A stretch of DNA of 64,000 nucleotides from an uncultured Actinomycetes bacterium. Its GTDB lineage: Bacteria; Actinomycetota; Acidimicrobiia; IMCC26256; PALSA-610. The translations under genes were made by a program, and so were the position numbers. The notes beneath the pieces were generated by a model. The model saw nothing but the letters and a program-made list of their open reading frames with translations, did no database searches and had not been told where the DNA came from. Below are positions 12,654-64,000 of this stretch, in pieces. The stretch lies in contig CAWIJC010000002.1 of NCBI GenBank assembly GCA_963836365.1, positions 617,058-681,057 of the forward strand, written 5' to 3'. Numbering within the stretch: the first letter of the stretch is position 1; each line of letters opens with the position of its first letter.

Positions 12654-14819
12654 GTGGTCGTGGCATCCGCGAAGCTCGGGCTTCGCATGCTGTTCGCAGC
12701 AACGCTCGTGTTCATCGCGTTGTTGCTGTTCGCGGGCCACGCCCACGCGGACGAAGCCGCCACCACGCCGGCACCCGAAACCACGACCGCGGTTGCACCC
12801 GACAACACTGCGACCGATCCGGCACCGGCGACGTCGACGCCGGCGACCGACAGCACCACCGCGCCGGCCGACACGGGAACGACGCCGCCGCCCACCGACA
12901 CCTCGACGCAGGCACCGGCGCCGCAAGACCAGAGCGCGATGCCCCCCACGCCGCCGCAGGCCGAGCCGACGCCGCCGACACCGGCCGGCGCGCCCGGGCC
13001 CACCCCCCCGAACAACACGAACGACCAGAACGCCGACGTCGGCACGACCGGCACCGGCGTCGCGAACACCGGCGGCAACGCGGCCGGCGCGCAGAGCAAC
13101 TCCGGCACGCAGACCAGTGGTACGCCCGGCGCGAACAACGGGTCGGCGACAGCAGGCACGTCGTCCGGCGACTCGTCCGCCGTCGGCACCAACAGCAACA
13201 GCACGATCGGTCAGCAGGCCCACGCCGAAGCGACCGGCTTGGGCACCGTCGACATCTTGCAGATCGCGCTCGTCGTCAACATCGGCGTCGCCAACTCGAA
13301 CACCGGCAGCAACGTCGTGGGTGCGGGCGGCGCGGGCACGTCGGGCATCGGCACGATCAAGTCGAGCATCAAATCCGGCAACGCGAGTGCGCTCGGCAAC
13401 AACTCCAAGACCGGTATCAAGCAGAGCGCGATCATCAAAAACGGTGAGCAGAGCAATCAGAAGGCCGTCGTCGTCAACGTCGGTATCGCGCTCGGCAACA
13501 GCGGTCTGAACATCACGATCGGCACGCTCGGCACCGACGGCCTGCCCGCGTCGACGCAGGCGGTCACGACCGGCGCGTCGAACGGCCAGATCTACACCGG
13601 CGACGCGAGCGCGATCGGCGACCGCTCGAATTCTGCGATCAATCAGTCGGCGAACGGCACGGCGAGCGGCATCGCCACCTTGGTGATCGACCAGCGGGCC
13701 GTGATCGTGAACTTCGGGACCGCGCTCGCGAACTCCGGCGGCAACGTGGCGCTCGCCTCGTTCGACCCGAGCAACCTGACGAGCGAGGAAGCCGAGATCG
13801 TCTACGCGGTGCTCAGCGCGTTGGCGCCGCTGTTCGGCCCGCCCCAGACCGGCGTCCAGAACTCGCTCGGCGGGACGACCGCGAGCATCGGCACCGGTAA
13901 CGCGAGCGCGATCGGCAACTCGTCGGCGACCGAGATCGATCAGAACGTCGAAGGCAGCGTGCACGGCGACGGGAACGCGTCGGCGACGCAAACCGCGGTC
14001 GTCGGCAACCTCGGTGTTGCGCTCGCGAACACCGGCTTCAACGGTGCGTTGGCAGGCGTCACGCTCGACGGGCTCACGCAAGCGCATCCCGAGCTCGTGG
14101 GTGCCGGCGACGCGCTCACGCAATTCCTCGCGCTGCTGACCAACCTCTCGTGGCTCGACAGCGCGAACCCGTTCGCACAGTTCGCGCAGTCGATCGACAT
14201 CGGCGGCGTCACGCTCGACCTGGGCGGCACGCTGAGCGGTTCCGAGTTCTTGCTCGGTTGGGACAGTGCGATCGCCCCCGACGGCGGCCCGCTTCCCGGT
14301 GGCGTGCGCGTGCGTCAGATCAGCGGCGTGTTGAACATCGGCTTCAGCACGTCCGACTCGGGCCACAACACGGTCGTCGCCATCGTGACCGGCTCGAACG
14401 GGAGCGGCGGCGACGTGAAATCGGCCAAGAGCGCGACGCAGGTGAAGAGCGGCTCGCCCGACGTGTTGGCCCAGGTGTTCTCGGGCAACGCGCTCGCGAT
14501 CGGCAACAACGCCGTCGTGACTGTGTGCCAGACGTTCCACGACACCGTGGACTGCTTCACCCCGAAGCCCACGCACCACCCGACGCCGCATCCGAAGCCC
14601 GCTCCGGCACCGCGGCCCCATACTCCTTCGGAGCCCCCGGTCGTCGTTGTGTCGGCGAACGAGGAATTGCCGCCCGCCTCGCCGACCGCCGCGACGACCT
14701 CGGGCTCCGAGGAGCTGCCGTTCACGGGCTCCGACCCGCAGGCATTGATCGCGATTGCCGGCACGATGCTCGCCGCGGGCGCGGCGCTCTCACGCCGCAG
14801 GCGCGCCGAACGCGTCTGA
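12654..14819 (+). CDS. LPXTG-anchored cell-surface repeat protein (sortase substrate): signal peptide, Pro/Thr-rich stalk, about 60-aa Asn/Gly/Ser-rich repeats, LPFTG + TM + RRRRAERV tail
   Basis: N-terminus MVVASAKLGLRMLFAATLVFIALLLFAGHAHA. Repeats of type TG[DN]ASAIGN.S...QS...Q.AVVVN.G.ALANSG.N. The C-terminus EELPFTGSDPQALIAIAGTMLAAGAALSRRRRAERV is a classic cell-wall sorting signal (LPFTG at 14715-14729). Confidence 0.75.
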   Translation: MVVASAKLGLRMLFAATLVFIALLLFAGHAHADEAATTPAPETTTAVAPDNTATDPAPATSTPATDSTTAPADTGTTPPPTDTSTQAPAPQDQSAMPPTPPQAEPTPPTPAGAPGPTPPNNTNDQNADVGTTGTGVANTGGNAAGAQSNSGTQTSGTPGANNGSATAGTSSGDSSAVGTNSNSTIGQQAHAEATGLGTVDILQIALVVNIGVANSNTGSNVVGAGGAGTSGIGTIKSSIKSGNASALGNNSKTGIKQSAIIKNGEQSNQKAVVVNVGIALGNSGLNITIGTLGTDGLPASTQAVTTGASNGQIYTGDASAIGDRSNSAINQSANGTASGIATLVIDQRAVIVNFGTALANSGGNVALASFDPSNLTSEEAEIVYAVLSALAPLFGPPQTGVQNSLGGTTASIGTGNASAIGNSSATEIDQNVEGSVHGDGNASATQTAVVGNLGVALANTGFNGALAGVTLDGLTQAHPELVGAGDALTQFLALLTNLSWLDSANPFAQFAQSIDIGGVTLDLGGTLSGSEFLLGWDSAIAPDGGPLPGGVRVRQISGVLNIGFSTSDSGHNTVVAIVTGSNGSGGDVKSAKSATQVKSGSPDVLAQVFSGNALAIGNNAVVTVCQTFHDTVDCFTPKPTHHPTPHPKPAPAPRPHTPSEPPVVVVSANEELPPASPTAATTSGSEELPFTGSDPQALIAIAGTMLAAGAALSRRRRAERV

Positions 14820-14821
14820 TC

Positions 14822-14849
14822 GTCGAAGGGGGGCATTCCCCCCTTCGAC
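14822..14849. terminator. perfect hairpin GTCGAAGGGGGG-catt-CCCCCCTTCGAC between convergent genes
   Basis: 12-bp perfect stem, seen in the sequence. Confidence 0.6.
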
Positions 14850-14875
14850 GCTACCCCCGCAGTTGCGCGTCGCTG

Positions 14876-15694
14876 CTACAGCGTGAAGGCCATGTGGTCG
14901 ACGACGCGGTTGCCGAGCGCCTGGTTGCCCTCCACGCGCACAGCCCCCATTCGGCGGGCCTGAGCGCCGTCCCATCGACCGCCGGCGAGGCGCGCGAACG
15001 TGCGGCGGTCGAGGGTGATGTGCGTGGTCGGCTCGGTGGGCGCGTCGGCGATGAGCTTGGCGCGACCTTCGGGTGGCACCGCGATGGTCGCGGTGACCGG
15101 TGGATTGCCGATCACGTCGAACACGACTGTGCTGTTCGGCGGGGTGCCCGCCTTCTTGCCGACCACGTAGCCGAGGGCCTTGCGCACGATGCGCTCGACC
15201 GACGCGTCGGCGATCACTCCCTCGAGCAAGCCGGGCCGGTCGAGAGCTTCGCGGATGTCCTGGTCGTGATACCAGCAGTCGAACACGCGTATTTCCATGA
15301 ACTGCCGGTACGGCCCGGGGCCTTCGGGTGTGAATCCTTCACGATCCCAGTCGGCCGGGGTCAGTGCGCGCAGTTGGTCGAGCCGTCGCGCCGTGACCGA
15401 GCGGAACTCGTCGAGCAGCTTCGTACCGTCCCATCCACGGTACGCGTCGATCCACCGTTCGTTCGCCCTGCCGATGTCGTTGCGGACATACGGCTTGTCG
15501 CCGGCGCCTGACGGCGCACTCGTTTGCTCGCCCATCAGCATCCGTTCGGTGCCGATCATGTGCGCGACGTTGTCGTGCACGCTCCAGCCCGGGCAATCGG
15601 TCGCGGTGTGCCACTGCGTGCTGTCGAGTCCGTCGCACATGTCGACGATGTCGCGCCAGATTGCTTCGAGATTCGCGATGACCGGCTCCGTCAT
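14876..15694 (-). CDS. mycothiol-dependent maleylpyruvate isomerase N-terminal-domain family protein (TIGR03083-like, DinB fold + SCP2-like C-terminus)
   Basis: MTEPVIANLEAIWRDIVDMCDGLDSTQWHTATDCPGWSVHDNVAHMIGTE is the hallmark of the actinobacterial MDMPI_N family. Confidence 0.65.
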   Translation of the reverse strand: MTEPVIANLEAIWRDIVDMCDGLDSTQWHTATDCPGWSVHDNVAHMIGTERMLMGEQTSAPSGAGDKPYVRNDIGRANERWIDAYRGWDGTKLLDEFRSVTARRLDQLRALTPADWDREGFTPEGPGPYRQFMEIRVFDCWYHDQDIREALDRPGLLEGVIADASVERIVRKALGYVVGKKAGTPPNSTVVFDVIGNPPVTATIAVPPEGRAKLIADAPTEPTTHITLDRRTFARLAGGRWDGAQARRMGAVRVEGNQALGNRVVDHMAFTL

Positions 15695-17498: not shown

Positions 17499-19934
<2,436 letters not shown>

Positions 19935-20004
19935 CCCATTCCTCCCCGGGCGTGTGCAGGGGTGCGTCTGCGACACCCCACACACGCCCCCGTGCGCCCC
20001 GACG

Positions 20005-21990
20005 TCAGACGTCGAGGAAGCGTGCGTCCTTGGCGTTCTGTTGGATCCAGGTGCGGCGGGCTTCGACGTCGTCGCCCATCAGCTTCGACAAGATCTCGTC
20101 GGCGATCGCGGCTTGGTCTACGTCGAGCTGCACCAGGTGCCGCGTCGCGGGATCCATGCACGTCTCTCGCAACTCTGGCGGGTCCATCTCGCCGAGACCC
20201 TTGAACCGCGCGAATGCAAGCTGACGGTTCGGGTGCTCGTCCATCACGCGCAGCCGCGCCGCGTCGTCGGGCACGTACACCTTCTGCCCAACGATCTCGA
20301 CCGAGTAGAGCGGCGGCTGGGCGACGTACAACCGGCCCGCCTCGACGAGCGGTGTCATGTGCCGGTAGAAGAATGTGATCAGGAGCGTGCGGATGTGCCC
20401 GCCGTCCACATCGGCGTCGGCCAGCACGATCACCTTGCCGTAGCGCACCTTGGCGATGTCGAAGTCGGGGCCGATGCCGCCGCCGATCGCCGCGATCAGC
20501 GACTGGATCTCCTGGTTCGCGACGACCTTGTCCATCGATGCGCGCTCGACGTTCAGGATCTTGCCGCGCAACGGCAGGATCGCCTGCGTCTTCGGATCGC
20601 GCGCGTCACGCGCCGAACCGCCCGCCGAGTCACCCTCCACCAGGAACAGCTCGGCTTCGTCGCGCGTGCGCGACGAGCAGTCGGCGAGCTTGTCGGGCAT
20701 GCCGACGCCGTCGAGCGCGGTCTTGCGGCGGGTGAGGTCGCGGGCCTGCTTCGCCGCGCTGCGCGCCTTGGCGGCGTTCGCGGCCTTGGCCACGATCGCC
20801 TTCGCCGGGTTCGGGTGCTCCTCGAGCCAGTGCCCGAAGTTCTCGTTGGTCGCGCGCTCGACCAGCGAACGGATCTCGGTGTTGCCGAGCTTCGCCTTCG
20901 TCTGCCCTTCGAATTGCGGGTCGCGCAGCCGCACCGACACGATCGCGGTCAGTCCCTCGCGCACGTCGTCGCCTTGGAACGTCGCGTCCTTGCCCTTCAC
21001 GAGGTTACGACCCTTCGCGTAACGGTTCACGGCCTGCGTCAGCGCGCGCTTGAAGCCCTCGGCGTGCATCCCGCCTTCGGTGGTGGAGATTCCATTGGCG
21101 AACGAGTGCAAGCCTTCGTGGTAGCCGTTGTTCCACTGCCACGCGACCTCGACCTCGCCTTCGGCTCCCTTGTCGGCGAAGTATCCGACGTCTTTGAACA
21201 GCGGCTCCTTCGACGCGTTGAGGTGCCGCACGAAGTCCACGAGACCGCCTTCGAACATGAACGTCTCGGATTGCTTGCGGCCCGGGCGCTCGTCGGTGAG
21301 CACGATCATGAGCCCGCGATTGAGGAACGCCATCACTTGCAGCCGCTCGGCCGCGGTGGCCCAGCGGAACTCGGTCTCTTCGAAGACGTCGGGGTCGGGC
21401 CAGAACGTGACCGCGGTGCCGGTGTGCCCGCGCTTGGACTGCGCGACGGCCTTGAGCTTTCCTTGTGGCACGCCCGGCTTCAGAGTGCGTCCGAGCTTTT
21501 CGGCCTTGTATTCCTGGCGCCAGGTCTTGCCGTCGCGATCTACCTCGAGCAGGACGCGCGTCGACAGCGCGTTCACAACCGAGACGCCGACGCCGTGCAG
21601 ACCGCCTGACATCTTGTAGCCGCCGCCGCCGAACTTGCCGCCCGCGTGCAGCGTGGTCATCACGATCTCGGCCGCCGACTTGCCCTTGTACTGCGGGTGC
21701 TCGTCGACGGGGATGCCACGCCCGTTGTCGCTGACGCGCACCGCGCCGTCGGCGCACAACACCACGTCGATGCGCGTGCAATAGCCGGCCATCGCCTCGT
21801 CGACCGCGTTGTCGACCACTTCCCAGATCAGGTGATGCAGGCCGGTCGGACCGGTCGAACCGATGTACATACCGGGCCGCTTGCGCACGGGGTCGAGCCC
21901 CTCGAGGACCTGTATGTGCTCGGCCGAATAGTCGCCGTTGCCGCGGGTGCGGGCCATGCGAAATACGGTAGGTGACGGCTGCGCCGCCAT
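20005..21990 (-). CDS. type IIA DNA topoisomerase subunit B (GyrB/ParE family, 661 aa)
   Basis: YSAEHIQVLEGLDPVRKRPGMYIGSTG, the GHKL motif LHHLIWEVVDNAVDEA, and the Toprim EGDSAGGS. Confidence 0.85.
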   Translation of the reverse strand: MAAQPSPTVFRMARTRGNGDYSAEHIQVLEGLDPVRKRPGMYIGSTGPTGLHHLIWEVVDNAVDEAMAGYCTRIDVVLCADGAVRVSDNGRGIPVDEHPQYKGKSAAEIVMTTLHAGGKFGGGGYKMSGGLHGVGVSVVNALSTRVLLEVDRDGKTWRQEYKAEKLGRTLKPGVPQGKLKAVAQSKRGHTGTAVTFWPDPDVFEETEFRWATAAERLQVMAFLNRGLMIVLTDERPGRKQSETFMFEGGLVDFVRHLNASKEPLFKDVGYFADKGAEGEVEVAWQWNNGYHEGLHSFANGISTTEGGMHAEGFKRALTQAVNRYAKGRNLVKGKDATFQGDDVREGLTAIVSVRLRDPQFEGQTKAKLGNTEIRSLVERATNENFGHWLEEHPNPAKAIVAKAANAAKARSAAKQARDLTRRKTALDGVGMPDKLADCSSRTRDEAELFLVEGDSAGGSARDARDPKTQAILPLRGKILNVERASMDKVVANQEIQSLIAAIGGGIGPDFDIAKVRYGKVIVLADADVDGGHIRTLLITFFYRHMTPLVEAGRLYVAQPPLYSVEIVGQKVYVPDDAARLRVMDEHPNRQLAFARFKGLGEMDPPELRETCMDPATRHLVQLDVDQAAIADEILSKLMGDDVEARRTWIQQNAKDARFLDV

Positions 21991-29605: not shown

Positions 29606-29672
29606 CGTGTGCGCTCGCGTCCGCCGGCTGCGCCTCTGGCCTCCCGGCCCCGAAGTTTGCAACACTGCCCAG

Positions 29673-30895
29673 ATGCCGAATCACGAGCAACGGGACGACA
29701 TCGATCTTCTCGAAGGGTCGTTCTACGTCGACAACCCGCGCGAGAAGTACGCGTGGATGCGGGAGCACGCGCCGGTGTACTTCGACGCCCGCAACGGCGT
29801 GTGGGGCATCGCGACCTACGACGCGTTGCTGGCGGCCGAGAAGAACCCGACGACGTTCTCGAACGCGGGCGGGATCCGCCCCGACAACGGGCCGATCCCG
29901 ATGATGATCGACATGGACGATCCCGAGCACTGGAAGCGACGCAAGCTCGTGAACAAGGGCTTCACGCCGCGGCGCGTGCGCGACAGTGAAACCGAGATCC
30001 GCGCGGTGTGCGACCAGATCATCGACTTCGATCTGCGAGCGCGGCGAGTGCGACTTCGTCAACGACATCGCGGCGCCCCTGCCGATGATCCTGATCGGCG
30101 ACATGCTCGGCGTCGAGCCCGAAGGATCGCGGCGACCTGCTGCGATGGTCCGACGACATGGTCGAGCGTGCTGAGCGGCAGCGCGACCGAGGAGCAGCAG
30201 ATGCGCTCGATCGCGGCGATGGAGGGCTACATCGGGTTCTGCACGCACGCGGTCGCGCAGCGGCAAGCCGCACCGACCGACGACCTCATGAGCGTGCTCG
30301 TGCACGCCGAGGTCGACGGCGACCGTTTGACCCCCGACGACGTGCTGCACGAGTCGTTGCTGATCCTCATCGGCGGCGACGAGACGACGCGCCACGTCAT
30401 CAGCGGCGGCATGGAACAGCTGATGTTGCAACCCGAGCAACACAGGCTGCTCGTCGACGACCCGAGCAAGATCACGGTGGCGGTCGAAGAGATGCTGCGG
30501 TGGGTATCGCCGATCAAGAACATGTGCCGCACGGTCACGCACGACACCGAGTTCTGGGGCGAGCAACTCTCACGCGGGACAGAAGTGCATGTTGCTGTTC
30601 GAGTCCGCGAACCTCGACGAGGGGAAGTTCGACGAGCCCGAGCGCTTCGACGTCGAGCGGCACCCGAACGAGCACGTCGCGTTCGGGTTCGGCACGCACT
30701 ACTGCCTCGGTCAGGCGCTCGCGCGCCTCGAGCTGAAGGTGATGTTCGAGCAGCTGCTGACGCGGCTCCCCGACCTCGAGCTCGCTGCCGATCCCGCGGC
30801 AGCTGCCCCGCCGCCGTGCGAATTTCATCAGCGGCTTGGAGAAGATGCCGGTCACGTTCTCGCCGTCGCGGCCGCTCGCACGCGCATCGGCATGA
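29673..30895 (+). CDS. cytochrome P450; at least three frameshifts (about 29985, 30130, 30600-30840)
   Basis: ExxR motif VEEMLRWVSP, heme loop FGFGTHYCLGQALARLE, and the end ...FISGLEKMPVTFSP in a +1 frame. The stop TGA overlaps the next ATG (ATGA). Confidence 0.7.
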
Positions 30896-31330: not shown

Positions 31331-31388
31331 GCCCTGACGGCGATTGCGGCATTCGGTGTCTCGGGCGCGGCATCGTTATCCTCGCCCC

Positions 31389-31763
31389 ATGGCGAGCGAG
31401 GGCTACCACGAGCCAATCGAAGCGTTGTCGGCCGACGTGCTCGATCGGCACCGGGCGATCACGTCGTTGAAGGAAGAGCTCGAGGCCGTCGACTGGTACG
31501 ACCAACGTGTCGCGGCCACCGGCGACGACGAGCTGCGCAGCGTGCTCGCGCACAACCGCGACGAGGAAAAAGAGCACGCGGCGATGACGCTCGAGTGGCT
31601 GCGGCGCAACGACGCCAAGTGGGACGAGGTGCTGCGCACCTACCTCTTCACGAGCCGCCCGATCGTCGAGGTCGAAAAGGAAGCCGACGCAGAGACGGAG
31701 AGTGGGAACGCTGCCGCCCGGCAGGGCCCCGCGCCCGGGCGACTTGCGGAAGGAGCCACCCCG
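31389..31763 (+). CDS. encapsulated ferritin-like protein (EncFtn); ORF continues in-frame without stop into the encapsulin shell gene
   Basis: MASEGYHEPIEALSADVLDRHRAITSLKEELEAVDWYDQRVAATGDDELRSVLAHNRDEEKEHAAMTLEWLRRNDAKWDEVLRTYLFT matches EncFtn, followed by an E/A/G/P-rich 37-aa linker. Confidence 0.8.
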
Positions 31764-32568
31764 ATGAACCACCTGCGCCGCGAGCTCGCGCCGATCTCCG
31801 ACGCCGCGTGGGCCGAGATCGACGAAGAGGCCGAGCGAACGCTGAAGCACTTCCTCACCGCACGCCGACTCGTCGACTTCGCCGGCCCGCTGGGATGGTC
31901 GACCGACGCAGTGTCGCGCGGTCACGTCGACGACATCACGCAGGCACCGGCCGGAGTCGGCGGGCGCATCCGCGTCACGCAACCGCTGCTCGAGTATCGC
32001 GCCGAGTTCTGGGTGGCACGCGCCGAGCTCGACACGATCGACCGCGGCGCGCGCGACGCCGACCTCGATCCGGTACGCGACGCGGCCCGGCGGCTCGCGC
32101 TCGCCGAAGACGAAGCGATCTTCCATGGCAACCATTCGGCGTCGATCACCGGCATCACCGAGGGTTCGCATCCGAAGCTGCCGATCAGCGACGACTACCG
32201 CGACTATCCGCAATCGGTGGCGCGGGCGGTCGCGATGCTGCAGTCCTCGGGCATCGCGGGCCCGTACGCGGTCGCGCTCGGTCCGCGCTGCTATACAGGC
32301 GTGATCGAGACGACCGAGATGGGCGGCTATCCCGTTCTCGAGCACCTGCGCCTGATCGCGGGCGGGCCCGTGTTGTGGGCGCCGTCGGTGGACGGCGGAG
32401 TCGTGCATATCACTGCGCGGCGACGACTACCTGCTGAGCGTCGGCGAGGACACCGCGATCGGCTACCTCGACCACGACGACACGAACGTGCACCTCTACT
32501 TCGAGGAGTCGTTCACGTTCCAGGTCTTCACGCCCGAAGCCGCGGTGCACCTCAGCTACGGCGCTTGA
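31764..32568 (+). CDS. family 1 encapsulin nanocompartment shell protein (linocin M18-like); one frameshift near 32410
   Basis: ATG 31764 with RBS GGAAGGAG 8 nt upstream. MNHLRRELAPISDAAWAEIDEEAERTLKHFLTARRLVDFAGPLGWS...GGPVLWAPSVDGGVV, then after a frame change ...SLRGDDYLLSVGEDTAIGYLDHDDTNVHLYFEESFTFQVFTPEAAVHLSYGA; stop 32566-32568. Confidence 0.85.
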
Positions 32569-32940: not shown

Positions 32941-34015
32941 CTACGAGGACGATGTTGCCCACGATATGCACAGACGCTCAACCAGCGCCGGCGCTCCGGC
33001 GAGTACGACGTACTCGACGTTGCGTGTGTGCGACACACGCCCGACCTTCTTCCCACCGGGATCGTGGATGCCGATCATCGCGCCGACGTAACGACGGGAA
33101 TCGAACGCGAGCACACCGACCGCGTCGCCGCGGGCCGCGCACATTGCTTCCAGCTCCTCGCGCGTGATCCACGCTTCGTTGTTGTACGAGACCACGACGA
33201 GCTCGGCGTCGACGTCGCGGACGACTTCGCGCGAGCGCGCCGGGCATCGCCCGGCGCTCGTTGAACACGCTCTTCGTCGCGGGATCACGAGCGTCGATTC
33301 GCTTGCACGCGACGCCATAGTGATCGGGCGCGTCCCACGCGACGATCGTTTCCCACACGTGGTAGTTCGTGAAGTAGCGGTGCTGGTTGTACGGCGGGTC
33401 GAGATACGCGAGGTCGAACTGCCCGAGCGCGCGCACCGCCTGGCGCGCGTCGGCCCGTACTGCCGCACCTTCACCGGCGACCAGCTCGGGTACGCGTAAG
33501 GTGAGCGGTTGGAACGAGCGCGGCGCCCACTGCTTCACGTACGCCATCTGCACACCGGTGGTCGAGTCGACACGGTCGGCCGCCTCGATCAGGCTGGTCA
33601 ACAGCACCGGGTACAGCCACTCGCTCTTGTAGTCGCGCTCGATCGCATCGCGGATCGCGTCGATGCGACGGCCGTTGTGCGGTTGGAAGAAGCGTGATCG
33701 CCGGCAGAACGTCTCGGTGACATAGCCGTCGAGCCGGGCGCGTCGCCGAAGTCGCGGAGCGCATCATCGAGCTCCGAGCGATTCGACCGTGTCGGCGTCG
33801 AGCGCCACATAGCACTGCGCGAACACCTCCGCGTAGCGGGCGGTGTCGACCGCGGTCACGTGCGTGCCTTGCCGCTTGAACGCCTGCGCGACCCGGGTCG
33901 TGCCGGTGAACAGGTCGATTGCCCGCCGGGCACCGGCGCGAGCGCAGATGTCGCCGAGCACCGGCACGAGCCGCCGTTTGGAACCGATGTACTTGATCAG
34001 GCTTCGGGACCGTAG
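32941..34015 (-). pseudogene. Dam-family (D12 class) N6-adenine DNA methyltransferase, at least three frame changes
   Basis: N-terminal YIGSKRRLVPVLGDICARAGARRAIDLFTGTTRV (motif I), DPPY motif FDLAYLDPPYNQHRYFTNYHVWETIVAWD, and the C-terminal VVVSYNNEAWITREELEAM...RVSHTRNVEYVV, each in a different frame. Confidence 0.65.
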
Positions 34016-34315: not shown

Positions 34316-35528
34316 TACTTCTCGGCGCTGAACACGAGCGGGAGCTGATCCGCCTGCCGGATGCCCGGCGAGAAATGGATGTCGTCGCGCCGCGAGGTCG
34401 TAGCGCGGGATGCGCCGGTGGAACTCCTCGAGCGCGACGCGCAGCTCCAGCCGGGCGAGGTGCGAGCCGAGGCAGCGGTGTGCACCGCCGCCGAACGCGA
34501 GGTGGCGGTTCGACTCGCGGTCGAAGCGCACGTCGGCGTGGTTCTCGAACTCGTCGGCGTCGGCGTTGGCCGCGCCGATGAGCAGCGTGGCATGGTCGCC
34601 GGCCTTGACCTGCATGCCGCCGATCTCGTGATCCTGTGCGACGAGGCGCGGCACCATCATCACCGGCGTCTGGTGGCGCAGGAGATCCTCGACTGCGTGG
34701 GGCGATGCACGACGGATCCGCCGCGAGCGCGTCGCGGCGGTCGGGATGGCGCGCCAGGTACGTGATCATGCAGTCGAGCGTGGCGGTGACGGTGTCGAGA
34801 CCACCGAGCAGCAACAGGTGGCATGCGCCCAACAGCTCGGCACGCGTCAAAGGACGACCATCGACCGTGCCTTGCACGAGCCTGCTGAAGAGGCGGTCGT
34901 CGGGGTTCCGGCGCTTCTCCTCGAGCGCAGCTTCGAAGTACTCCTCGATCGCGCGGCCGGCTTCCTTGCGGATGCGGTCTTCTTCCTCCATCGTCCGTGC
35001 GTCGGGACGGATCGTGTCGTCCCGCCACTTCAAGAACTGTGGAAGGTCCTCGTGCGGCAGGCCCGTGAGCGCGAGGAAGAACGTCGACGGCAACGGTGAC
35101 GCGAACTCTTCGTGGAAGTCGCACTCTCCGCGGTCCGCGAACGTGTCGATCGTCTCGTTGACGAACTTGCGCATCTCGTCTTCGAGCTGAGCCATTCTTC
35201 GCGGCGCGAATTCGGGGTCCATCAAGCGCCGATACTTCGCGTGATCCGGCGGGTCGACCGACAACGGGATCAGCGGGAACTCGCCGCCGATGTCGACGAC
35301 ACCCTTCGACGAGTAGTACTCGGGGTGCTTCAGCGCCCACAGCACATCTTCATAGCGCGACAGCAGCACTTCCTTGTTGCCGAACATCGTCGTGTGGCGC
35401 GAAACAGGACACTGCGCGTGCATGTCCGCGTACACATCGTGCGGCGCATCGGCGCAACGATCCGAGAAGATTCGATCGACGATCTGAGGCCGGTCGTTCT
35501 CTTCGCCGTGCGTCTCTTGGGTGTACAT
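34316..35528 (-). CDS. cytochrome P450, second copy; frameshifts near 34690 and 34330-34400
   Basis: N-terminal 280 aa in ORF 34266-35528. Heme loop FGGGAHRCLGSHLARLE in ORF 34019-34663, with the C-terminal tail in a third frame. Confidence 0.7.
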
Positions 35529-37255
35529 CAGGACTCCTTCGCATGAACTGTTCGCGTGTCGCGACCGCTGCGCAGCACGACGCCCGGCGTCGCACTCGTG
35601 TAGGCCCCGTCACGAACAGTTTCGGTGCCGCCGACGAGCACGTGGTGCACGCCATGCGACTCGGCAACAATTCGATGTGCGTTGCCCGGCAGGTCGTCGA
35701 ACGTTCGCTCGCCCGCGGGCCCAACGGTGGCCGGATCGAAGCACACGATGTCGGCGTGCGCTCCGGGTTCGAGACGGCCCCGGTCGCGCAGCCCGTAGAG
35801 GCGCGCCGGAACGTCGGTGAGCAGGTGTACCGCCTCCTCCAACGACACGTGGCCGTTGCGGACGGCGTCACCGACGACGAATGTCGTGTAGCTGGCGCCC
35901 GACATCATGTCGAGGTGCGCGCCGGCGTCGGATCCGCCGATGACCGCGCGGGAGTCGCGCCACACTTCGGCGCGCATCTTCCACACGTCGTCGGGTTCGG
36001 GACCGCCGAAGTCGGGGCGCAGCCCGGTGCGCAGCCCGTCGGCGACGACGATGTCGCACAACGTGTCGAACGCGTTCGCGTTGCTCTCGCGCGCGATCTC
36101 GCCGATCTTCCGCCCTTCGAGCTTGCGCGTCTCGTCGGTGAAGCCCTCGACGATCTCGAGCCGCTCCCAGCGCGCGAGCCCCGCGAGCAGGCCTGCCTCC
36201 GGCGAGTGCGCCCGCTCGTCGAGCTGCGTGCGGACCTCGGGGTCGCAGAGCGCGCGCATCCGTTCCTCGATCGGCAGCGCGAGCGTCTCTCTCCACCCCG
36301 GAAGGCCGTCGAGAACGAAACCGGTGTGGAACGAGAGACGGATCCGCATGCCCTGTGGGAGCGTGAGGGCGACGACGCGTGCGCCTCGAGCCTTCGCGTG
36401 GCTCCCGGCCTCGAGCTGACGCTCGTGCATGCCCCCGGACGCGACGCCGAGCACGTTCCAGTTGAGTGGACGATCGGCCGCGAGCGACATCTCGGTGAGC
36501 AGCTCGACCTCGTCGTCGGTGAAGCCGTTGAGGCAGCCCGCGATGATCAGCTCGAGCTGCGTCCCCTCATGGTCGCGTGCGACCGCGGCGAGGCGGAGCA
36601 GCTCTTGCTTCGTGGCCGCGCGCGACGGCACGGGGTTGCCGTCGCCGTCGTTGTGCGTGGGTGCCTGCGACGTCGAGAAGCCCATCGCGCCCGCGGTGAG
36701 CGCGTCGTGCAGCAACTGCTCCATGCGCGCGATCTGCTCGTCGGTCGCAACGTGTCCGACCGCGTCGTCGCCCATGACGACGCGCCGCAACGCCGAGTGA
36801 CCGCAGAGGAAGCCCGCGTTGACCGCCGTGCCGTGCTGCTCCACTCGATCGAGGTACTCGGCGAACGTCTGCCAGTCCCACGGCACGCCCTGTTGCAGCG
36901 CGGGCAGCGGAATGCCCTCGACGCGTGCCATCAAGCGCGAGAGGTAGTCGACGTGCGCGTCGCCTCCGGGCGCGAGCGTGAAGCCGCAGTTGCCGCCGAA
37001 GACCGTCGTGACGCCGTGCAGCGGTGACGGGCTCGCGGTCGCGTCCCAGAGAAGCTGCGCGTCGTAGTGCGTATGGAGATCGACGAAGCCGGGCGCGACC
37101 ACGAGGCCGTCGGCGTCGATCGTGCGCGTGGCCGTGTCGTCGACCTCGCCGATCGCGACGATGCGGCCGGTGTCGATCGCGACATCGGCGTGCCGGGCCG
37201 CGACGCCGGTGCCGTCGACGACCGTGCCGCCCGTGATGATGAGGTCGACGGTCAC
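35528..37255 (-). CDS. N-acyl-D-amino-acid deacylase (D-aminoacylase) family amidohydrolase (Amidohydro_3)
   Basis: GTG 37255 overlaps the upstream stop (GTGA). VTVDLIITGGTVVDGTG...APGFVDLHTHYDAQLLWD...; 575 aa. Confidence 0.75.
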   Translation of the reverse strand: MTVDLIITGGTVVDGTGVAARHADVAIDTGRIVAIGEVDDTATRTIDADGLVVAPGFVDLHTHYDAQLLWDATASPSPLHGVTTVFGGNCGFTLAPGGDAHVDYLSRLMARVEGIPLPALQQGVPWDWQTFAEYLDRVEQHGTAVNAGFLCGHSALRRVVMGDDAVGHVATDEQIARMEQLLHDALTAGAMGFSTSQAPTHNDGDGNPVPSRAATKQELLRLAAVARDHEGTQLELIIAGCLNGFTDDEVELLTEMSLAADRPLNWNVLGVASGGMHERQLEAGSHAKARGARVVALTLPQGMRIRLSFHTGFVLDGLPGWRETLALPIEERMRALCDPEVRTQLDERAHSPEAGLLAGLARWERLEIVEGFTDETRKLEGRKIGEIARESNANAFDTLCDIVVADGLRTGLRPDFGGPEPDDVWKMRAEVWRDSRAVIGGSDAGAHLDMMSGASYTTFVVGDAVRNGHVSLEEAVHLLTDVPARLYGLRDRGRLEPGAHADIVCFDPATVGPAGERTFDDLPGNAHRIVAESHGVHHVLVGGTETVRDGAYTSATPGVVLRSGRDTRTVHAKES

Positions 37256-43798: not shown

Positions 43799-45225
43799 TC
43801 ACCGACGAGCGATCAGCGCACGCGTGTCGACCTTGCCCATCGCCGTGAGCGGCAGCGCGTCGAGCAGCTCGAGCCGGTCGGGCGCCTTGTAGTCGGCGAG
43901 TATGGCCCGGCAGTGCGCGCGCAACCGTTCGAGATCGGGCGCGGCGCCGTCGGCCGCGACGACGTACGCAACGCCGATCTCGCCGAGCACACGGTCGGGA
44001 ACGCCGACCACTGCGACGTGCGCAACGTCGGGATGCGCCGCCAGCACCTGCTCGACCTCGACGGGGTAGACGTTGTAGCCACCGCGGATGTACATCTCGG
44101 TGCGGCGGCCCACGAGCGTCAGGTAGCCGCGCTCGTCGAGCGACCCCATGTCGCCGGTCGACAACCAGCCCTCCGCGTCGATGACCTCGGCCGTGCGCGC
44201 GGGATCCCGCCAGTACGCCGCGCATCACCGCCGCCGACCGGCAGCGCACGCGACCCGATCGCGCCGGTTGCGAGCGGTACTCCGGCATCATCGACGACTT
44301 GGAGCTCGACGTTCTCGCGTGCGCGCCCGACCGTGCGCGCGAGAACTTCGGGTGCGTCTCCGGGCACCGTACCGGTGGTGATCGCCGCTTCCGTGCTCGT
44401 GTACCCGATGACGACCGGGCAGCCGAGCCGTCGTTCCATCTCGCGCACGAGCTCGGGCGGCACCGCGGCGGCGCCGGTGCCCGCGATACGCAACGAGGAG
44501 ACGTCGGTGGCCTCGAACGAGGGATGGTCGAGCACGAGTCGCCATTGCGTCGGCACGCCCTGTCCGACAGTGACGCGCTCGGACGCGATGAGCTCCAGCG
44601 TCTCGGCGGCCGTCCACGGTGTCGACGGGATGATCGTCGTGATGACGTTCTCGATCTCCTCCCATGGACGCGACATGTACGCGACGTGCGCGAAAGGCAG
44701 GGGGCTGAGCCGGCGGTCGAACCGCGCGCCGAGATCGCCGCCACCGATCGCGACCGCGGCGAGGCTCTCGTGCGCGAACACCGCACCTTTTGGCATCCCG
44801 GTGGTCCCGCTCGTCCACACGATCGCAACCGGGTCGTCGGCGCGCGGCTGTGGCAGCACCCCCGGCGAGCGCTCGTACGCATTGCGCAACTGTGCGAGAT
44901 CGGGTTCGCGCACGACGACGCGAGGCTGCGTACGTTCGAGAATGCTGGTGATCTCCGCGGGGCCGAGCCGCGGATTGATTCCCGTCGTGATCGCGCGCAA
45001 CCGCATCGCGGCCTGGTAGCACACCGCGTAGTCGATCGACGACGGCACAAGCAGCGCGACGACGTCGCCGGGCTCGACACCCATTGCGTGCCATTGCGTT
45101 GCGAGGCCGTCGGCGGCGCGGCTCCATTCACCGAACGTCATCCGCCGGCCAACGTGTACGTACGCCTCGCGCTCGCCGTGCGTCTCGGCAATGGCGCGAA
45201 GCAGGTCGACGGCAGTCTTCGTCAT
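43799..45225 (-). CDS. AMP-dependent acyl-CoA synthetase/ligase; frameshift near 44150-44200
   Basis: N-terminal MTKTAVDLLRAIAETHGEREAY...WTSGTTGMPKG (ORF 44119-45471). C-terminal DMGSLDERGYLTLVGRRTEMYIRGGYNVYP...YKAP (ORF 43799-44164). Confidence 0.7.
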
Positions 45226-45263
45226 GCGGATGCGGGCCACGCCCCGAGCGATAGCGTGGCCGG

Positions 45264-50985: not shown

Positions 50986-52871
50986 TCAGGCGACGTCCAC
51001 GTCGACGTCGACGATCGGTGCGACGAATTGCGAGTTGTAGAGCCGCGAGTAGGGGCCGTCGTGCGTCAGAAGCTCGTTGTGCGATCCCTGCTCGACGATC
51101 TGGCCGTTCTCCATCACGAGGATTATGTCGGCGCCGCGAATCGTCGACAACCGGTGCGCGATCACGAAGCTCGTGCGCTCGTGACGGAGCGCGTTCATCG
51201 CCTCCTGGATGAGCACCTCGGTGCGCGTGTCGACCGAGCTCGTCGCTTCGTCGAGGATGAGGATCCCCGGATCGGCGAGGAACGCTCGTGCAATTGTCAA
51301 AAGCTGCTTCTGGCCCGCGCTGATGTTGTCGCCTTCCTCGTTGATCATCGTGTCGTAGCCGTCGGGAAGCGAGTGCACGAAGCGGTCGACGTACGTGGCG
51401 CGCGCGGCTTCGAGGATCCGGTCCTCGGTCGCGTCAGGGTCGCCGTAGGCGATGTTGTCGCGGATCGTGCCGCCGAACAGCCACGTGTCCTGCAGCACCA
51501 TGCCGACCGACGATCGCAGCTCCGAGCGCGGCATCGAAGAGATGTCGCGGCCGTCGAGCGTGATCATGCCGCCGTTCAGCTCGTAGAAACGCATGATGAG
51601 GTTCACGAGCGTCGTCTTGCCGGCACCGGTCGGGCCGACGATCGCGATCGTCTGGCCCGGTTCGGCAACGAGCGACAGGTGCTCGATCAGCGGCCGGTCG
51701 GGGTCGTACGCGAACGTGACGTCGCGGAACTCCACCCGGCCGATCACTGGTGCGGGATTCATGGTCGCTGCGGCCTCGGCACTCTGCTCGTCGGCGTCGA
51801 GGAACTCGACGACTCGCTCGAACGATGCGATCCCCGACTGGAAGACATTCATCATCGAGGCGAGCTGCGTGAGCGGCATCGAGAAGTTCCGGGAGTACTG
51901 GATGAACGCCTGGATGTCGCCGACCGTGATCGCGCCGTTCGCGACGCGTAACCCACCGACGACGGCGACGATCACATACTGGATGTTGCCCATGAACATC
52001 GTGAAGGGCTGCATCACGCTCGACATGAACTGGGCGCCGAATGACGACTCGTAGAGCTCGTCGTTGGTCTCGCGGAAGCGCCGCTCGACCTCGCGCTGGC
52101 GGCCGAACGCCTTCACGACGGCGTGACCGGTGAAGGTCTCTTCGATCTGCGCGTTCAGGATGCCCGTGCTCTTCCATTGCGAGATGAATCGCGGCCGCTG
52201 CCCTTCGCGCGAGGACGCGCATGCCGTAGACCGACACCGGCACAGTCGTCAGCGCAACGAGCGCGAGCAGCGGCGAGATCGTGAACATCATGATCGCGAC
52301 TCCCAGCAGCAGCAGCACCGACGTGAGCATCTGGCTGAGCGTCTGTTGCAGGCTCTGCGCGACGTTGTCGATGTCGTTGGTGACGCGGCTGAGCAGATCG
52401 CCGCGTTGCTGCTTGTCGATGTAGCTGAGCGGAAGGACGTTGACCTTGTCCTCGACGTCGGATCGCAGCTTGTACATCAACCGCTGGATGACCCCGGCGA
52501 GCGTGTACGCGGCGACGATCTGCAGCAGCGACGAGCCGACGTAGAGCGCGATCGCCTCGAGCAGCACGTGGTGGAGGGCGCCGAAGTCGATCCCGCGATG
52601 GCTGATCACGCCGCGGACGATGATGTCGGTGCCATGCCCGAGCACACGCGGGCCGTATACGTTGAGCACGACGCTCGCGATCGCGACGACGAACACGAAC
52701 ACGAGCACGATCCACATCGGGCCGAGCATGCGCGAGGCGTGCGAGGGCGCTCTTGAAGTCCTTCGACCGCTCGCCCGGAACGCCCGCGGAGTTCCATCGA
52801 CCGGTCGGGCGTGTCTCGGGGGCGGCGAGATCGAGTTCCTGGTCCTCGTACTCGTCGTCGATGATCGTCAC
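50986..52871 (-). CDS. ABC exporter half-transporter (TMD-NBD); frameshift(s) in TMD
   Basis: [32 protein letters not shown] and [12 protein letters not shown]; TMD in ORF 51434-52729. Confidence 0.65.
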
Positions 52872-59941: not shown

Positions 59942-60779
59942 ATGACCGCAACTCTCACCACACCCGTGATCTCCACCAGGCCGATGCCGAAGCTCTGGGC
60001 CAAGCTCCCGATCCGGACCGGCAACATCATCCAACTCAGCAGCATCGCCGCCGGGGCCGCACTGCTGGTTGCGGCGGCGCACCTGCACGCCGCCAGTGGC
60101 ATACGGATCGGCCTGCTCGCCGTCGGATGGCTCGCCATCTACTTGTGCAGCCACGCCATCGCCCACGTCGCAGTCGGCCACGCCGTCGGTATCCGCTTCC
60201 GCGCCTACGGCGTACGCGGTACCGACCATCCCGAGAACTACCCGCCCGGAGTACGCCAGGTCATGAGCGCGCTGCCGATGTGGTCCGCGCTCACCGACAA
60301 GGACTCGATGCGCCAAGCCAAGCCCTGGGCCAAAGCCGCCATGTTTTCCGCCGGCGAAACATCCACCACCATCGTGTCGATCACGTCCGCGGCGTACGCC
60401 GCCCACGCGGGTATCCCGGGCGGTCACGCACTGCTGACCGGCAGCGTCTTGTGGGGACTCGCAGCCACCATCACCGTCGCGGTCGTCGCCAAAGGCGACT
60501 ACACCAAAGCCATGCGCGCCCTCGGATGGCGCAAGCCCACCTCGGTCAAGACCGCCGAGTTCTCCCACGAGCGGACCACCAGACCGAACCGGCGAGGCCC
60601 ACCGCGGCAACGAACTCCGCAACGCCATCATCGGCTGGACCCTCGTCAACCTCGCACTCGTGGCCCTGTGGGCCGTCAACGGTGCCGGCTCGCCGTGGTT
60701 CGCGTTCGTCACCGTCCCCTCCGTCATCGGCGTGAGCAGCTGGGCCCGCCAGGGTCGCCGAGAGGCAACAGTCCGATGA
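59942..60779 (+). CDS. integral membrane protein; frameshift near 60580; stop overlaps next start (ATGA)
   Basis: TM-rich ORF 59942 onward. Its C-terminus lies in a second frame: ...WTLVNLALVALWAVNGAGSPWFAFVTVPSVIGVSSWARQGRREATVR. Confidence 0.45.
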
Positions 60780-61063
60780 CGAACCCCAACTACTCCACGT
60801 TCCTCGGCACCGCGACACAACTCCAACGCTGGCGAGACTTCAAAGCCCACGCAACCGCCTACTCAGTCTTCAATCTGATCTTCATCGCCATCTGGGTCGC
60901 GACCGGAGGGCCGTTCTGGCCCGCGTTCCCACTCATCGGATGGGGCATCGGCCTCACCTTCCAACATCACGCCAACACGCTCACCGGTCCCATCACCCAA
61001 GAGCAGGTGCGCGAACGAATGCAACCACACGAGGCCGGACTGGTTGAGCCATCGCGTGCATGA
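60777..61063 (+). CDS. 2TM domain-containing small membrane protein
   Basis: MTNPNYSTFLGTATQLQRWRDFKAHATAYSVFNLIFIAIWVATGGPFWPAFPLIGWGIGLTFQHHAN. Confidence 0.55.
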
Positions 61064-61275: not shown

Positions 61276-61348
61276 GGCCCTCGTAGCTCAGGGGATAGAG
61301 CATCGGTTTCCTAAACCGTGTGTCGCAGGTTCGAATCCTGCCGGGGGC
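61276..61348 (+). tRNA. tRNA-Arg (anticodon CCT), 73 nt, no encoded CCA
   Basis: Acceptor GCCCTCG/CGGGGGC, D-arm GCTC-AGGGGATA-GAGC, anticodon arm TCGGT-TTCCTAA-ACCGT (one U-U at 27-43), T-arm GCAGG-TTCGAAT-CCTGC. Confidence 0.7.
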
Positions 61349-61452
61349 GCTCTTCTGACCAGCACGTATGGACTGCAACGGACGGGGTGGACGCGGTGGA
61401 CGGCGGGTTGCCCATCCACTTGCCCATCCTTCGCGCGACGCAGACTGTTCGC

Positions 61453-62614
61453 ATGCAGGGATCGATACGGCAGCGCGGACAACAGTCGTGGGAGCTGCGC
61501 GTCCACGCCGGCCGCGACGCGCTGACGGGTCGCAAGACGTACGTGCAACGAACCGTGCGCGGCACGAAGCGCGACGCGGCGAACGCACTGGCGCGGCTCG
61601 TCACATCGGTGAACGACGGCGCGCACTCGACGAAGAAGAGCGGCACCGTCGGCGAACTGCTCGAGCAGTGGTTCAGCCACAACGAGGCCGACTGGTCCCC
61701 CACCGTCGTTCACAACTACCGGCGGATCATCGACCGGCACCTTGTTCCGCGCTTCGGTCGCACGCCGCTGCGGCGGTTGACAACGGCCGACATCGATCGG
61801 TTCTACGCGCAGCTGCGCAAGCGCGGTGGTGCCAATGGTCGGCCCTTGTCGCCCGCGTCGGTGAAGCGCGTGCACGCGGTGTTGCGGCGCGCGCTCGCGC
61901 AAGCCGTCAAGTGGGGTGACCTGACGATCAATCCCGCGGTGAACGCGTCGCCGCCCGCGCGAACCGCGCCACGAGGTGGCCCCGCCCGATCCCGCCGATG
62001 TGGCGCGCTTGATCGCGCACGCCGATGAGACCAATGCACCGGTCGGCTGCTTCCTTCGGCTTGCTGCGACATCTGGCGCGCGTCGCGGTGAGCTGTGCGC
62101 GTTGCGCTGGAAGCACGTCGATCTCGACAAGGGCGCGCTCCTCATCCAGCGATCGATCGTCGAGAACGGAAAGGGTGAACTGGTCGAGAAGGACACGAAG
62201 ACGCACGCCGCGCGCCGGCTTCGCCTCGACGCGGGAACAGTCGAGCGCTTGCGAGAGCACCGCGCCGAGCGCGAGGGTACGGCACCGAGCTCCGCCGGAT
62301 CGTGCACGCCGACGACTTCGTGTTCTCGCACGATCCCGCCGGCACGGACGCCCTGGCGTCCGGGATACGTCACGCTCGCGTTCTGCCGACTGCGCGATGA
62401 CGTCGATCTCGGCGGAGTTCGGCTCCACGATCTCCGTCACTTCGCCGCGACGATTCTTCTCTCCGGCGGCAAAGACGTGAAGACGGTGAGCGGCCGCCTC
62501 GGCCACGCGAACGCGGCGACGACCCTCGGCGTGTACGCCCACTTCGTCGAAGCAGCCGACGCCGACGCAGCCGACCACCTCGCATCAATTCTCGACACTG
62601 CCAGCTCGTCATGA
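61453..62614 (+). pseudogene. tyrosine-type site-specific recombinase (phage integrase); two frame changes (about 61975, about 62290)
   Basis: N-terminal SAM-like MQGSIRQRGQQSWELRVHAGRDALTGRKTYVQRTVRGTKRDAANALARL. Catalytic R (ATSGARRGELCALRW), HxxR (LHDLRHFAAT) and Y (LGVYAHF) lie in shifted frames. Confidence 0.7.
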
Positions 62615-62734
62615 CACACGTCCGCCGAGCCGCTACGCGACAGACTGCAGCATCACTTCAGATCGCGCGAGCGACCGGGGTAAGCGTCACACCCTCTTCG
62701 TACGATGAAGCGCCTATAGACCGGGAGAGCGACC

Positions 62735-63487
62735 ATGGGTGACCACAGCGCGATCGAGTGGACTGAAGCAACCTGGAACCCAACAACGGGCTGCGATAAG
62801 ACGTCGCCCGGGTGCGACAACTGCTACGCGCTTACCCTCGCCAAAGCGACTCAAGGCGATGCGTCAACCAAAGTACCAGCGCGACGGTGATTCCCGGACA
62901 AGCGGGCCCGGCTTCGCCTTGAGTATCCATCCCGACACGCTCGACATCCCGCGATCGTGGAACGCACCGCGCGTGATCTTCGTGAACTCCATGAGCGACT
63001 TGTTTCACCCGAGCGTTCCACTTGGCTACATCCGCGATGTCTTCGACGTCATCGAGGACACGCCTCAACACACCTACCAAGTGCTCACCAAACGTTCGAA
63101 GCGGCTCGCGGAGCTCTCTGATCGGCTTCGCTGGCCCGCCAACCTATGGATGGGCGTCAGCGTCGAAAGCATGCGGTACTCGTTCCGAATCGACCACCTT
63201 CGCGACGTAGATCCTGCAGTGCGTTTCGTCAGCGCCGAGCCTCTGCTTGCCCCGCTACCGACGCTCGACCTCACCGGTATCCATTGGCTGATCGCCGGTG
63301 GCGAGAGCGGTCCCAACGCTCGACCTATGGATCGGCTCGTGGGTGGCGAGCCTACGCGACCAATGCGAGCGCTGCCGGCGTTCCCTTCTTCTTCAAGCAG
63401 TGGGGTGGACGCACGCCAAAGGCCGGCGGCCGAGAACTCGACGGCCAACTCCACGACGGGATGCCGCTCGTCCTCGCGATCGCGTGA
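62735..63487 (+). CDS. DUF5131 (phage Gp37/Gp68 family) protein with three-Cys motif; two frameshifts
   Basis: [32 protein letters not shown] (C-x5-C-x2-C), then [69 protein letters not shown] and [10 protein letters not shown]. Confidence 0.7.
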
Positions 63488-63488
63488 T

Positions 63489-64000
63489 GTGACCCGCTAC
63501 TGGGGCTTCTGGACCCGCGGCAAGCTCGAGTTGTTGCGCCGATACCTCGATGCCTTCACGACGACGACCAAGAACAAGGCAACCGAACGGCTCTACCTCG
63601 ACATCTTCGGCGGCCAACCCGAGAACCGCGATCGCCTCACCTACGATCTGCTCGACGGTTCGGCGCGGATCGCGCTGTCGATCGACGATCCGCCGTTCAC
63701 ACGGCTCCGATTCCTGGAGCTCGATCCCTACGCAACACGGCTCAGAACCGCTCTGGAGCAGGACTTCTCCGGTCGAGACTTTGAAGTGATCGCCGGCGAT
63801 TGCAACACGACGATTCACACGACGCTGCAGGAGCTCGCGCATCTCAGCTGGGCACCGACGTTCGCGTTCGTCGATCCGAACGGCCCCGACACTCATTGGT
63901 CCAGCATCGAGGCACTCGCGAACTTCAAACGCAAGGACCGACCGAAGGCAGAGAGTCTGGCTTCTACTCGCCGCGGGAATGTTCATCCGGATGCTCCCGA
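63489..64000 (+). CDS. three-Cys-motif partner protein TcmP (TIGR04474-like), 5-prime partial at window end
   Basis: GTG immediately after the DUF5131 stop. VTRYWGFWTRGKLELLRRYLDAFTTTTKNKATERLYLDIFGGQPEN...FVDPNGPDTHW. Confidence 0.55.
   Translation, partial: MTRYWGFWTRGKLELLRRYLDAFTTTTKNKATERLYLDIFGGQPENRDRLTYDLLDGSARIALSIDDPPFTRLRFLELDPYATRLRTALEQDFSGRDFEVIAGDCNTTIHTTLQELAHLSWAPTFAFVDPNGPDTHWSSIEALANFKRKDRPKAESLASTRRGNVHPDAP

Follow-up and report, generated by a model that had tools for sequence, protein, structure and literature searches.

Does a tRNA gene that is directly followed by an integrase gene and a pair of genes without assigned function mark the end of a mobile island, and what do the broken reading frames in all three of these protein-coding genes say about its state? 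These questions are raised by the right-hand end of a stretch of actinobacterial DNA of 64,000 nucleotides (nt), here called the window, in which a tRNA-Arg(CCT) gene is followed by genes for a tyrosine integrase, a DUF5131 protein and TcmP (the three-Cys-motif partner). We hold with moderate confidence that the locus is the left, tRNA-proximal end of a defence-type integrative genomic island, and that its broken frames are likely assembly errors. The parts of the locus are as follows.

61277 to 61350, plus strand: gene for tRNA-Arg (anticodon CCT), predicted by ARAGORN; the proposed integration target and left (attL-side) boundary of the island
61351 to 61452, plus strand: spacer between the tRNA and integrase genes, read directly from the sequence; it carries TTGCCCATCC twice
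61453 to 62614, plus strand: tyrosine integrase gene (PF00589 and PF14659 on the corrected protein), with three 1-nt insertions or deletions (indels)
62735 to 63487, plus strand: DUF5131 gene (Gp37/Gp68 family, PADLOC PDC-M41B; PF07505), with three +1 insertions
63489 to 64000, plus strand: TcmP gene (three-Cys-motif partner protein, PADLOC PDC-M41A; TIGR04474), with one +1 insertion; it continues past the end of the window

The tRNA-Arg(CCT) gene is the single tRNA gene that ARAGORN detected in the 64-kb window, which ends 2.65 kb beyond it. A first-pass annotation, made from the sequence alone, had placed a tyrosine integrase within 105 bp of a tRNA gene, and the ARAGORN prediction together with the PF00589 match and a gap of 102 nt between the tRNA and the integrase ATG at 61453 bears this out. 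The profile matches of integrase and DUF5131 and the counts of invariant residues given below refer to frame-corrected (stitched) translations. The integrase gene ends with a TGA at 62612-62614 and no single open frame spans it. Its stitched product of 388 amino acids, composed from three frames, matches PF00589 (1.6e-19) and PF14659 (4.3e-10), and it also hits PF22022 at 3.3e-05, which is under the cut-off of that model. The stretches RGE, HDLRH and GVYAH plausibly contain the active-site residues of a tyrosine recombinase, as judged by eye.

The DUF5131 gene runs from the ATG at 62735 to the TGA at 63485-63487 and was likewise stitched across three frames. The corrected protein matches PF07505 over profile positions 2-243 of 243 (3e-94, 315.5 bits against a cut-off of 28.9). 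The first-pass annotation had described it as a DUF5131 protein with a C-x5-C-x2-C motif; the family and the three cysteines stand, the spacing does not, since the motif reads C20-x6-C27-x2-C30, and all three cysteines are invariant in 34 relatives. TcmP begins with a GTG at 63489, thus 1 nt past the DUF5131 stop as had been proposed. Only its N-terminal part (approximately 170 of 330 codons) lies inside the window, and these 170 residues match TIGR04474 with 110.2 bits (1.6e-31; cut-off 53), compared to 179.1 bits for the intact TcmP of the relative L001 described below. Moreover, the two proteins match the adjacent components of the PADLOC candidate system PDC-M41, DUF5131 as PDC-M41B (3.2e-102, 339 bits) and TcmP as PDC-M41A (2.5e-21, 74.9 bits), and the intact pair of L001 matches these models still better. 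The family assignments made by eye in the first pass are hereby confirmed by profile searches. The pair is a new copy of an already catalogued kind, with the testable features of PF07505, TIGR04474 and PDC-M41. Membership of DUF5131 in NCBIfam TIGR04471, named radical S-adenosylmethionine (SAM) mobile pair protein A, was also considered; the match is weak and local (1.8e-19, 70 bits against a cut-off of 355), and this assignment was rejected.

The island character of the locus becomes visible in the comparison with its relatives. The closest DUF5131 proteins are 84-89% identical, consist of 249 amino acids and come from metagenomes and Acidimicrobiia-type metagenome-assembled genomes (MAGs). 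One of them, P0005, is encoded on the 377-kb contig L001 (L002 and L087 represent the same region), in which a tRNA-Arg(CCT) gene at 8584-8657 is followed by intact genes for a 387-amino-acid integrase, DUF5131 and, 1 nt past its stop, TcmP. Thereafter come a 236-amino-acid protein, a convergent HEPN/nucleotidyltransferase pair (PDC-M05) and a Wadjet JetABCD cluster. The order integrase, DUF5131, TcmP is repeated in L003 and L004, and L091 carries the integrase followed by a DUF5131 fragment. The 74 nt of the tRNA genes in the window and in L001 are identical and the identity falls sharply just beyond the tRNA 3' end; from the tRNA rightwards the DNA of both is 83% identical, and upstream of the tRNA it is unalignable. 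In the spacer, the two copies of TTGCCCATCC lie at 61408-61417 and 61420-61429, 12 nt apart, and the second of them, TTGCCCATCCTTC (repeat region to 61432), is kept in L001 despite the diverged surrounding spacer. This repeat may represent a promoter, operator or arm-type site of the integrase.

When metagenome contigs were searched for relatives of the L001 integrase, 48 loci emerged. Integrases with 55-57% identity (L088-L090) are situated directly after tRNA-Arg(CCT) without DUF5131 or TcmP, and the cargo of L089 at this tRNA consists of an SNF2 helicase, a DUF1156 protein and an AAA_21 ATPase. The idea that the pair belongs to the core machinery of this integrase family was rejected on these grounds. 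More remote integrase relatives are found after tRNA-Lys, Thr, Met, Val, Cys, Glu and Tyr. In L093, which carries an integrase of the same family, the 3' part of tRNA-Lys is repeated over 37 nt with one mismatch approximately 2.6 kb downstream. Another DUF5131 island, in L049, extends over 11 kb (4515-15690) and is bounded by tRNA-Ser(CGA) on one side and, on the other, by a direct repeat of 57 nt from the 3' part of this tRNA; besides DUF5131 and the TcmP-like open reading frame (ORF) downstream of it, the island encodes an integrase, an AAA_25 protein and an AAA_21 ATPase. Because intact relatives repeat the gene order and the integrases of 55-57% identity carry other cargo at the same tRNA, we read the locus as an island and the DUF5131-TcmP pair as its cargo and not its core. 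Generally, the compared loci show a tRNA-targeting integrase family with variable, largely defence-type predicted cargo.

The earlier proposal of an integrated element is therefore supported by the same order on an unrelated contig with an unalignable left flank, by the variable cargo and by the repeats in L093 and L049. The supposition that the integrase-proximal end is a place for defence or anti-defence genes is consistent with the defence genes that adjoin the pair in relatives and with its placement in Gordonia phages (see below). The element would have entered the tRNA-Arg(CCT) gene at its 3' end by the action of the tyrosine integrase, a type of recombination that regenerates the tRNA. 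Mobility of the window copy we infer by analogy with the relatives, its attR (the repeat of the tRNA 3' end at the far boundary) being expected past position 64000. No phage genes occur in the 12 kb after the L001 integrase, which hold only DUF5131, TcmP, the orphan protein, the HEPN/nucleotidyltransferase pair and Wadjet; a prophage was rejected, given that this intact relative has no phage structural or replication genes beside its integrase.

What, then, do the broken frames mean? Alignment with three intact relatives (L001, L003 and L004 in the case of the integrase) placed seven 1-nt indels, all of them unique to the window, six insertions and one deletion. They are located near 61957 (+1), 62305 (-1) and 62350 (+1) in the integrase, near 62841, 63336 and 63370 (all +1) in DUF5131 and near 63955 (+1) in TcmP. 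The frame changes that the first-pass annotation had noted in integrase and DUF5131 are hence real features of the sequence as written; they are not limited to these two genes, since TcmP and at least nine other genes of the window are shifted as well, each of the latter with a single Pfam domain split across reading frames. These genes, and a tenth case with a partial domain, are:

20-512 and 524-1491: two M24 peptidase genes, Pfam domain split across frames
1496-3040 and 43811-45243: two acyl-CoA ligases, Pfam domain split across frames
8475-9307: enoyl-CoA hydratase, Pfam domain split across frames
29667-30770 and 34388-35534: two P450s, Pfam domain split across frames
31386-32565: encapsulin, Pfam domain split across frames
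50989-52729: ABC transporter, Pfam domain split across frames
approximately 33230-34000: D12 methyltransferase, partial domain only

A frame-aware Viterbi coding model, whose calls were checked by Pfam domains split across frames and which replaced a noisier greedy ORF map and a segment-junction heuristic, predicted approximately 50 frame switches in the window. They occur in patches, outside the island at 0-3, 28.9-34.7, 44-49.4 and near 52.2 kb, and the region from 3.6 to 28.8 kb is almost clean; at least one call is false, because position 3547 is a normal gene boundary. This clean region includes gyrA (17499-19937) and gyrB (20005-21990), which are intact with full domain coverage, as are other long genes, and the window is therefore chromosomal. 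Its GyrA is 100% identical to a protein (P0241) on a 1.2-Mb NCBI/ENA contig; the nearest other match is 91% identical and metagenome-derived, and the lower-ranking named relatives are Acidimicrobiia/Actinomycetota MAGs. Together with the 1.2-Mb source contig, these metagenome-derived matches suggest a long-read metagenome assembly.

Furthermore, the substitutions in the island genes were polarised with L001 as outgroup. On the window lineage, synonymous and non-synonymous changes amount to 25:4 in DUF5131, 16:2 in TcmP and 15:5 in the integrase (56:11 in total), and among the intact relatives to 18:4, 12:4 and 32:9, respectively (62:17 in total). The island genes show no relaxed selection on the window lineage. 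The corrected DUF5131 retains 113 of 114 invariant residues, and TcmP, which is 92% identical to its relative P0124 over the part present, retains all 27. The first-pass annotation had left the choice between decay and sequence errors open. Because frameshifts occur window-wide, insertions dominate six to one, invariant residues are kept and selection is not relaxed, we prefer errors over decay and regard it as quite likely that the seven frame breaks are consensus errors of the assembly. If they are errors, the organism itself probably has unbroken genes for integrase, DUF5131 and TcmP.

Two other explanations of the locus have to be weighed. The element could be a decaying remnant, in which integrase, DUF5131 and TcmP are pseudogenes by real frameshifts, so that the island can no longer move and its cargo no longer functions. 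Seven frame-breaking indels in 2.55 kb correspond to 2.7 per kb, several times the window average of approximately 0.75 per kb obtained with the frame model, and with a 25-kb stretch nearly free of indels and intact gyrA, gyrB and other long genes the errors are not uniform over the window. Remnants at the same tRNA seem to exist as well: in L129 (93-946) and L130 (9637-10490), the integrase behind tRNA-Arg(CCT) is reduced to two short pieces that lie in different frames, and these may be what is left of an element at this site in another metagenome. However, a decay long enough for seven indels should have left many non-synonymous substitutions, unlike the ratio seen, which is the same as in the intact relatives, and the nearly complete set of invariant residues also speaks against it. 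When bacterial pseudogenes decay, deletions of various lengths prevail, whereas the indels here all measure 1 nt and comprise six insertions against one deletion. In addition, equally dense patches of frameshifts occur in unrelated metabolic genes such as those for P450s, encapsulin, ABC transporters and acyl-CoA ligases. A decay specific to the island was rejected, given the frameshifts across the window and the unrelaxed selection, and a decaying remnant as such appears unlikely to us. The second explanation assumes a fixed chromosomal neighbourhood at the tRNA without current or recent mobility, whose genes were inherited vertically or belong to an island domesticated long ago. It would account for the lack of an attR, i.e. 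a second copy of the tRNA-Arg 3' end (...GTTCGAATCCTGCCGGGGGCG), in the window and in 12 kb of L001, where direct repeats of relevance were likewise not found, and the recurrence of the four-part order in several contigs could reflect vertical inheritance in one lineage. Unalignable left flanks in the window and L001 are difficult to reconcile with such a neighbourhood, as are the different cargo behind related integrases at the same tRNA, the conservation of the integrase under purifying selection and the att repeats of integrase-family relatives and other DUF5131 islands. We therefore judge it quite improbable. The missing attR and direct repeats, the higher indel density in the island and the uneven distribution of errors nevertheless count against an integrative island whose frame breaks are assembly errors, which we continue to prefer.

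Some observations on the relatives of the island deserve mention in their own right. Immediately upstream of its tRNA-Arg(CCT), L001 carries a second, shorter integrase-family gene (7659-8558, 299 amino acids, PF00589 1.1e-12), and nothing similar was found at the corresponding place in the window. The region 12497-20750 of L001, with the PDC-M05 pair and the Wadjet-type cluster (DUF2397, DUF2398, SbcC-like, DUF3323/DUF2399), represents a stacked defence island. In the closest intact relatives a protein of 231-236 amino acids is encoded directly after TcmP (L001 11762-12472, L003 2457-3152); the 236-amino-acid version of L001 gave no match in Pfam, NCBIfam or PADLOC, and this protein could be a third component of the module in this island lineage; in the window, the corresponding region falls past position 64000. 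The cargo behind the 55%-identical integrase of L089 (12156-20108) comprises a 1316-amino-acid SNF2/ResIII helicase with NOV_C domain, a 1013-amino-acid DUF1156 protein and the AAA_21 ATPase, a combination which we take to resemble a DISARM-type system. In the window itself, a 373-amino-acid ORF just upstream of the tRNA (59942-61063) has a plausible membrane-protein start, an Arg/Pro-rich and apparently out-of-frame middle and, at its C terminus, a 2TM domain (PF13239). A switch is placed near 60581 by the frame model, and the ORF may represent either a single gene with a frameshift or two separate genes. The encapsulin shell protein (Linocin_M18, 31386-32565) has an EncFtn-like N-terminal domain in the same reading frame, and after a frameshift near 32412 the final 34 positions of the profile are matched in a different frame.

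The remaining question is what the cargo does. A partner for DUF5131 was sought with an iterated TcmP profile in 80 species-representative genomes with a DUF5131 gene, mostly of Actinomycetota, with Chloroflexota, Planctomycetota, Nitrospirota and others. A TcmP-like gene was found within 300 bp in 70 of the 80 loci (41 on the same strand, 29 convergent), so the conserved two-gene module without assigned function that the first-pass annotation had recognized is indeed kept adjacent across genomes, and it is already listed as PDC-M41. Within 5 kb of DUF5131, a tyrosine integrase is present in 11 and a tRNA in 12 of these genomes. In a phage collection DUF5131 occurs in 181 records and a recognisable TcmP in 7. 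Gordonia phages BaxterFox and Fairfaxidum carry the pair between the integrase and the immunity repressor, and gp43 of Fairfaxidum, called a methyltransferase, is TcmP-like at 8e-73. Our literature search found no published work on PDC-M41, and for TcmP, DUF5131 and PF07505 only a classification mention and some mentions in annotation tables.

Regarding the structures, no solved structure related to DUF5131 or TcmP is detectable by sequence. The AlphaFold model of a close DUF5131 homologue displays a partial TIM-barrel radical SAM fold with spore photoproduct lyase as best structural match, which agrees with the classification at RadicalSAM.org, where DUF5131 forms Megacluster-5-2 beside spore photoproduct lyase in 5-3 (PMC9477430). 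The model of a close TcmP homologue shows a Rossmann-type class I SAM-methyltransferase fold, closest to RlmJ. Two patterns recur in the relatives of TcmP, namely D-x-F-x-G, which is invariant, and DPNG, in which D129-P130 are invariant and N131-G132 nearly so; they resemble methyltransferase motifs I and IV when placed by eye. Pfam methyltransferase models gave no match. Radical-SAM-like or nucleic-acid-modifying chemistry, as assumed in the first pass, is in line with these fold searches. Because of the two folds, the near-constant adjacency and the position at the integrase end in defence islands, the models suggest a joint SAM-dependent modification of nucleic acid. DUF5131 and TcmP would then share the work on DNA or RNA, with TcmP binding or presenting the target base and DUF5131 performing the SAM-dependent radical chemistry, and the product would serve the island or prophage for defence or self-marking. 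Nucleic acid as target and the role in defence we infer from this combination.

We only tentatively propose, as a possibility well short of an expectation, a two-enzyme system of a non-canonical radical SAM protein and an RlmJ-like base-binding partner that installs an undescribed DNA or RNA modification for immunity or self-marking of islands and phages. Several points weigh against a joint action of the pair, also in its general form. The DUF5131 model has predicted local distance difference test (pLDDT) values below 50 at residues 21-61, i.e. in the cluster region; the canonical radical-SAM motif C-x3-C-x2-C is absent; TcmP has DPNG and not DPPY where motif IV is expected from placement by eye; PDC candidates are mostly without validation (PMC12988326); and the mycobacteriophages Squirty, Nadezda and prophiGD43A-5 (L135-L137) encode DUF5131 in the midst of genes for replication and recombination, where a distance of 3 kb around it holds nothing TcmP-like. 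These homologues are 46-52% identical and have a C-terminal extension; in some phages DUF5131 may do without TcmP.

The latter location, together with the best structural match, would also suit a DNA-repair or damage-response module, in which a relative of spore photoproduct lyase acts on damaged DNA and islands carry the pair incidentally. Mycobacteria offer further arguments for it. We take the M. bovis BCG gene BCG_2748c to be the counterpart of Rv2735c in M. tuberculosis. A TcmP domain is reported for BCG_2748c. The transcript of Rv2735c is shared with recA-recX (PMC3062782), and among the genes whose expression differs under mitomycin C, Rv2734, Rv2735c, recX and recA fall into a single cluster (PMC5057432). 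However, the pair adjoins defence systems in islands, lies between integrase and repressor in temperate Gordonia phages and is a PADLOC candidate, and prophage-borne genes, too, are typically damage-induced. The argument from mycobacteria also depends on Rv2734 being a DUF5131 protein, as it presumably is. On balance such a function looks doubtful. Alternatively, the pair could be a phage-derived anti-defence system that modifies own or host DNA to escape restriction, comparable to phage hypermodification enzymes. The 181 phage records with DUF5131, the nucleic-acid methyltransferase fold in the TcmP model and the presence of the pair in temperate phages are compatible with this explanation; yet the island lineage is without phage structural genes in 12 kb and has defence genes as neighbours, and most occurrences are chromosomal and spread over many phyla, which renders it improbable in our view.

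Taken alone, the locus adds little, since curators have already named the pair, PADLOC has listed it, and the window provides just a further copy. The function of DUF5131-TcmP is the main question, for which intact copies such as L001 are better material than the window copy. The pair offers a testable idea, namely that proteins with predicted radical SAM and RlmJ-like methyltransferase folds may act jointly on nucleic acid, and if they install an undescribed modification, the intact copies would open a direct route to new radical-SAM chemistry on nucleic acid. With regard to the islands, tRNA-Arg(CCT) appears as a hotspot in this actinobacterial lineage, at which one integrase family brings different defence cargo. 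With regard to the assembly, the patchy 1-nt frameshifts mean that apparent pseudogenes in this window should not be taken as biology without a check of the reads.

How does the locus compare with known systems? Like other tRNA-targeting tyrosine-integrase islands, it has the integrase directly behind the tRNA and the cargo further downstream; in relatives, this tRNA is accompanied by Wadjet, the HEPN/nucleotidyltransferase pair or the helicase/DUF1156/AAA_21 set, and the window copy is read to 64000. In comparison with the PADLOC candidate PDC-M41, both components are present and adjacent, and the window copy differs in being frame-broken as written, with TcmP cut by the window end. TIGR04471, to which DUF5131 does not belong, is likewise one half of a pair. 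Compared to spore photoproduct lyase and the radical SAM superfamily, DUF5131 is approximately 10% identical, much smaller (249 amino acids) and has six instead of three residues between the first two cysteines, the relation being known here from sequence and model. RlmJ, the 23S rRNA m6A2030 methyltransferase, and Legionella LPL1258 (PDB 2oo3) both have class I methyltransferase folds like the TcmP model; TcmP differs by an identity of approximately 15%, an extra helical C-terminal region and DPNG instead of DPPY. There is also the family concept of Pfam PF07505 and TIGR04474, with which the three-Cys motif and the adjacent partner gene agree without a difference in the features tested, and to which this lineage adds the fixed integrase-proximal position at tRNA-Arg(CCT) and the spacer of 1 nt between the two genes.

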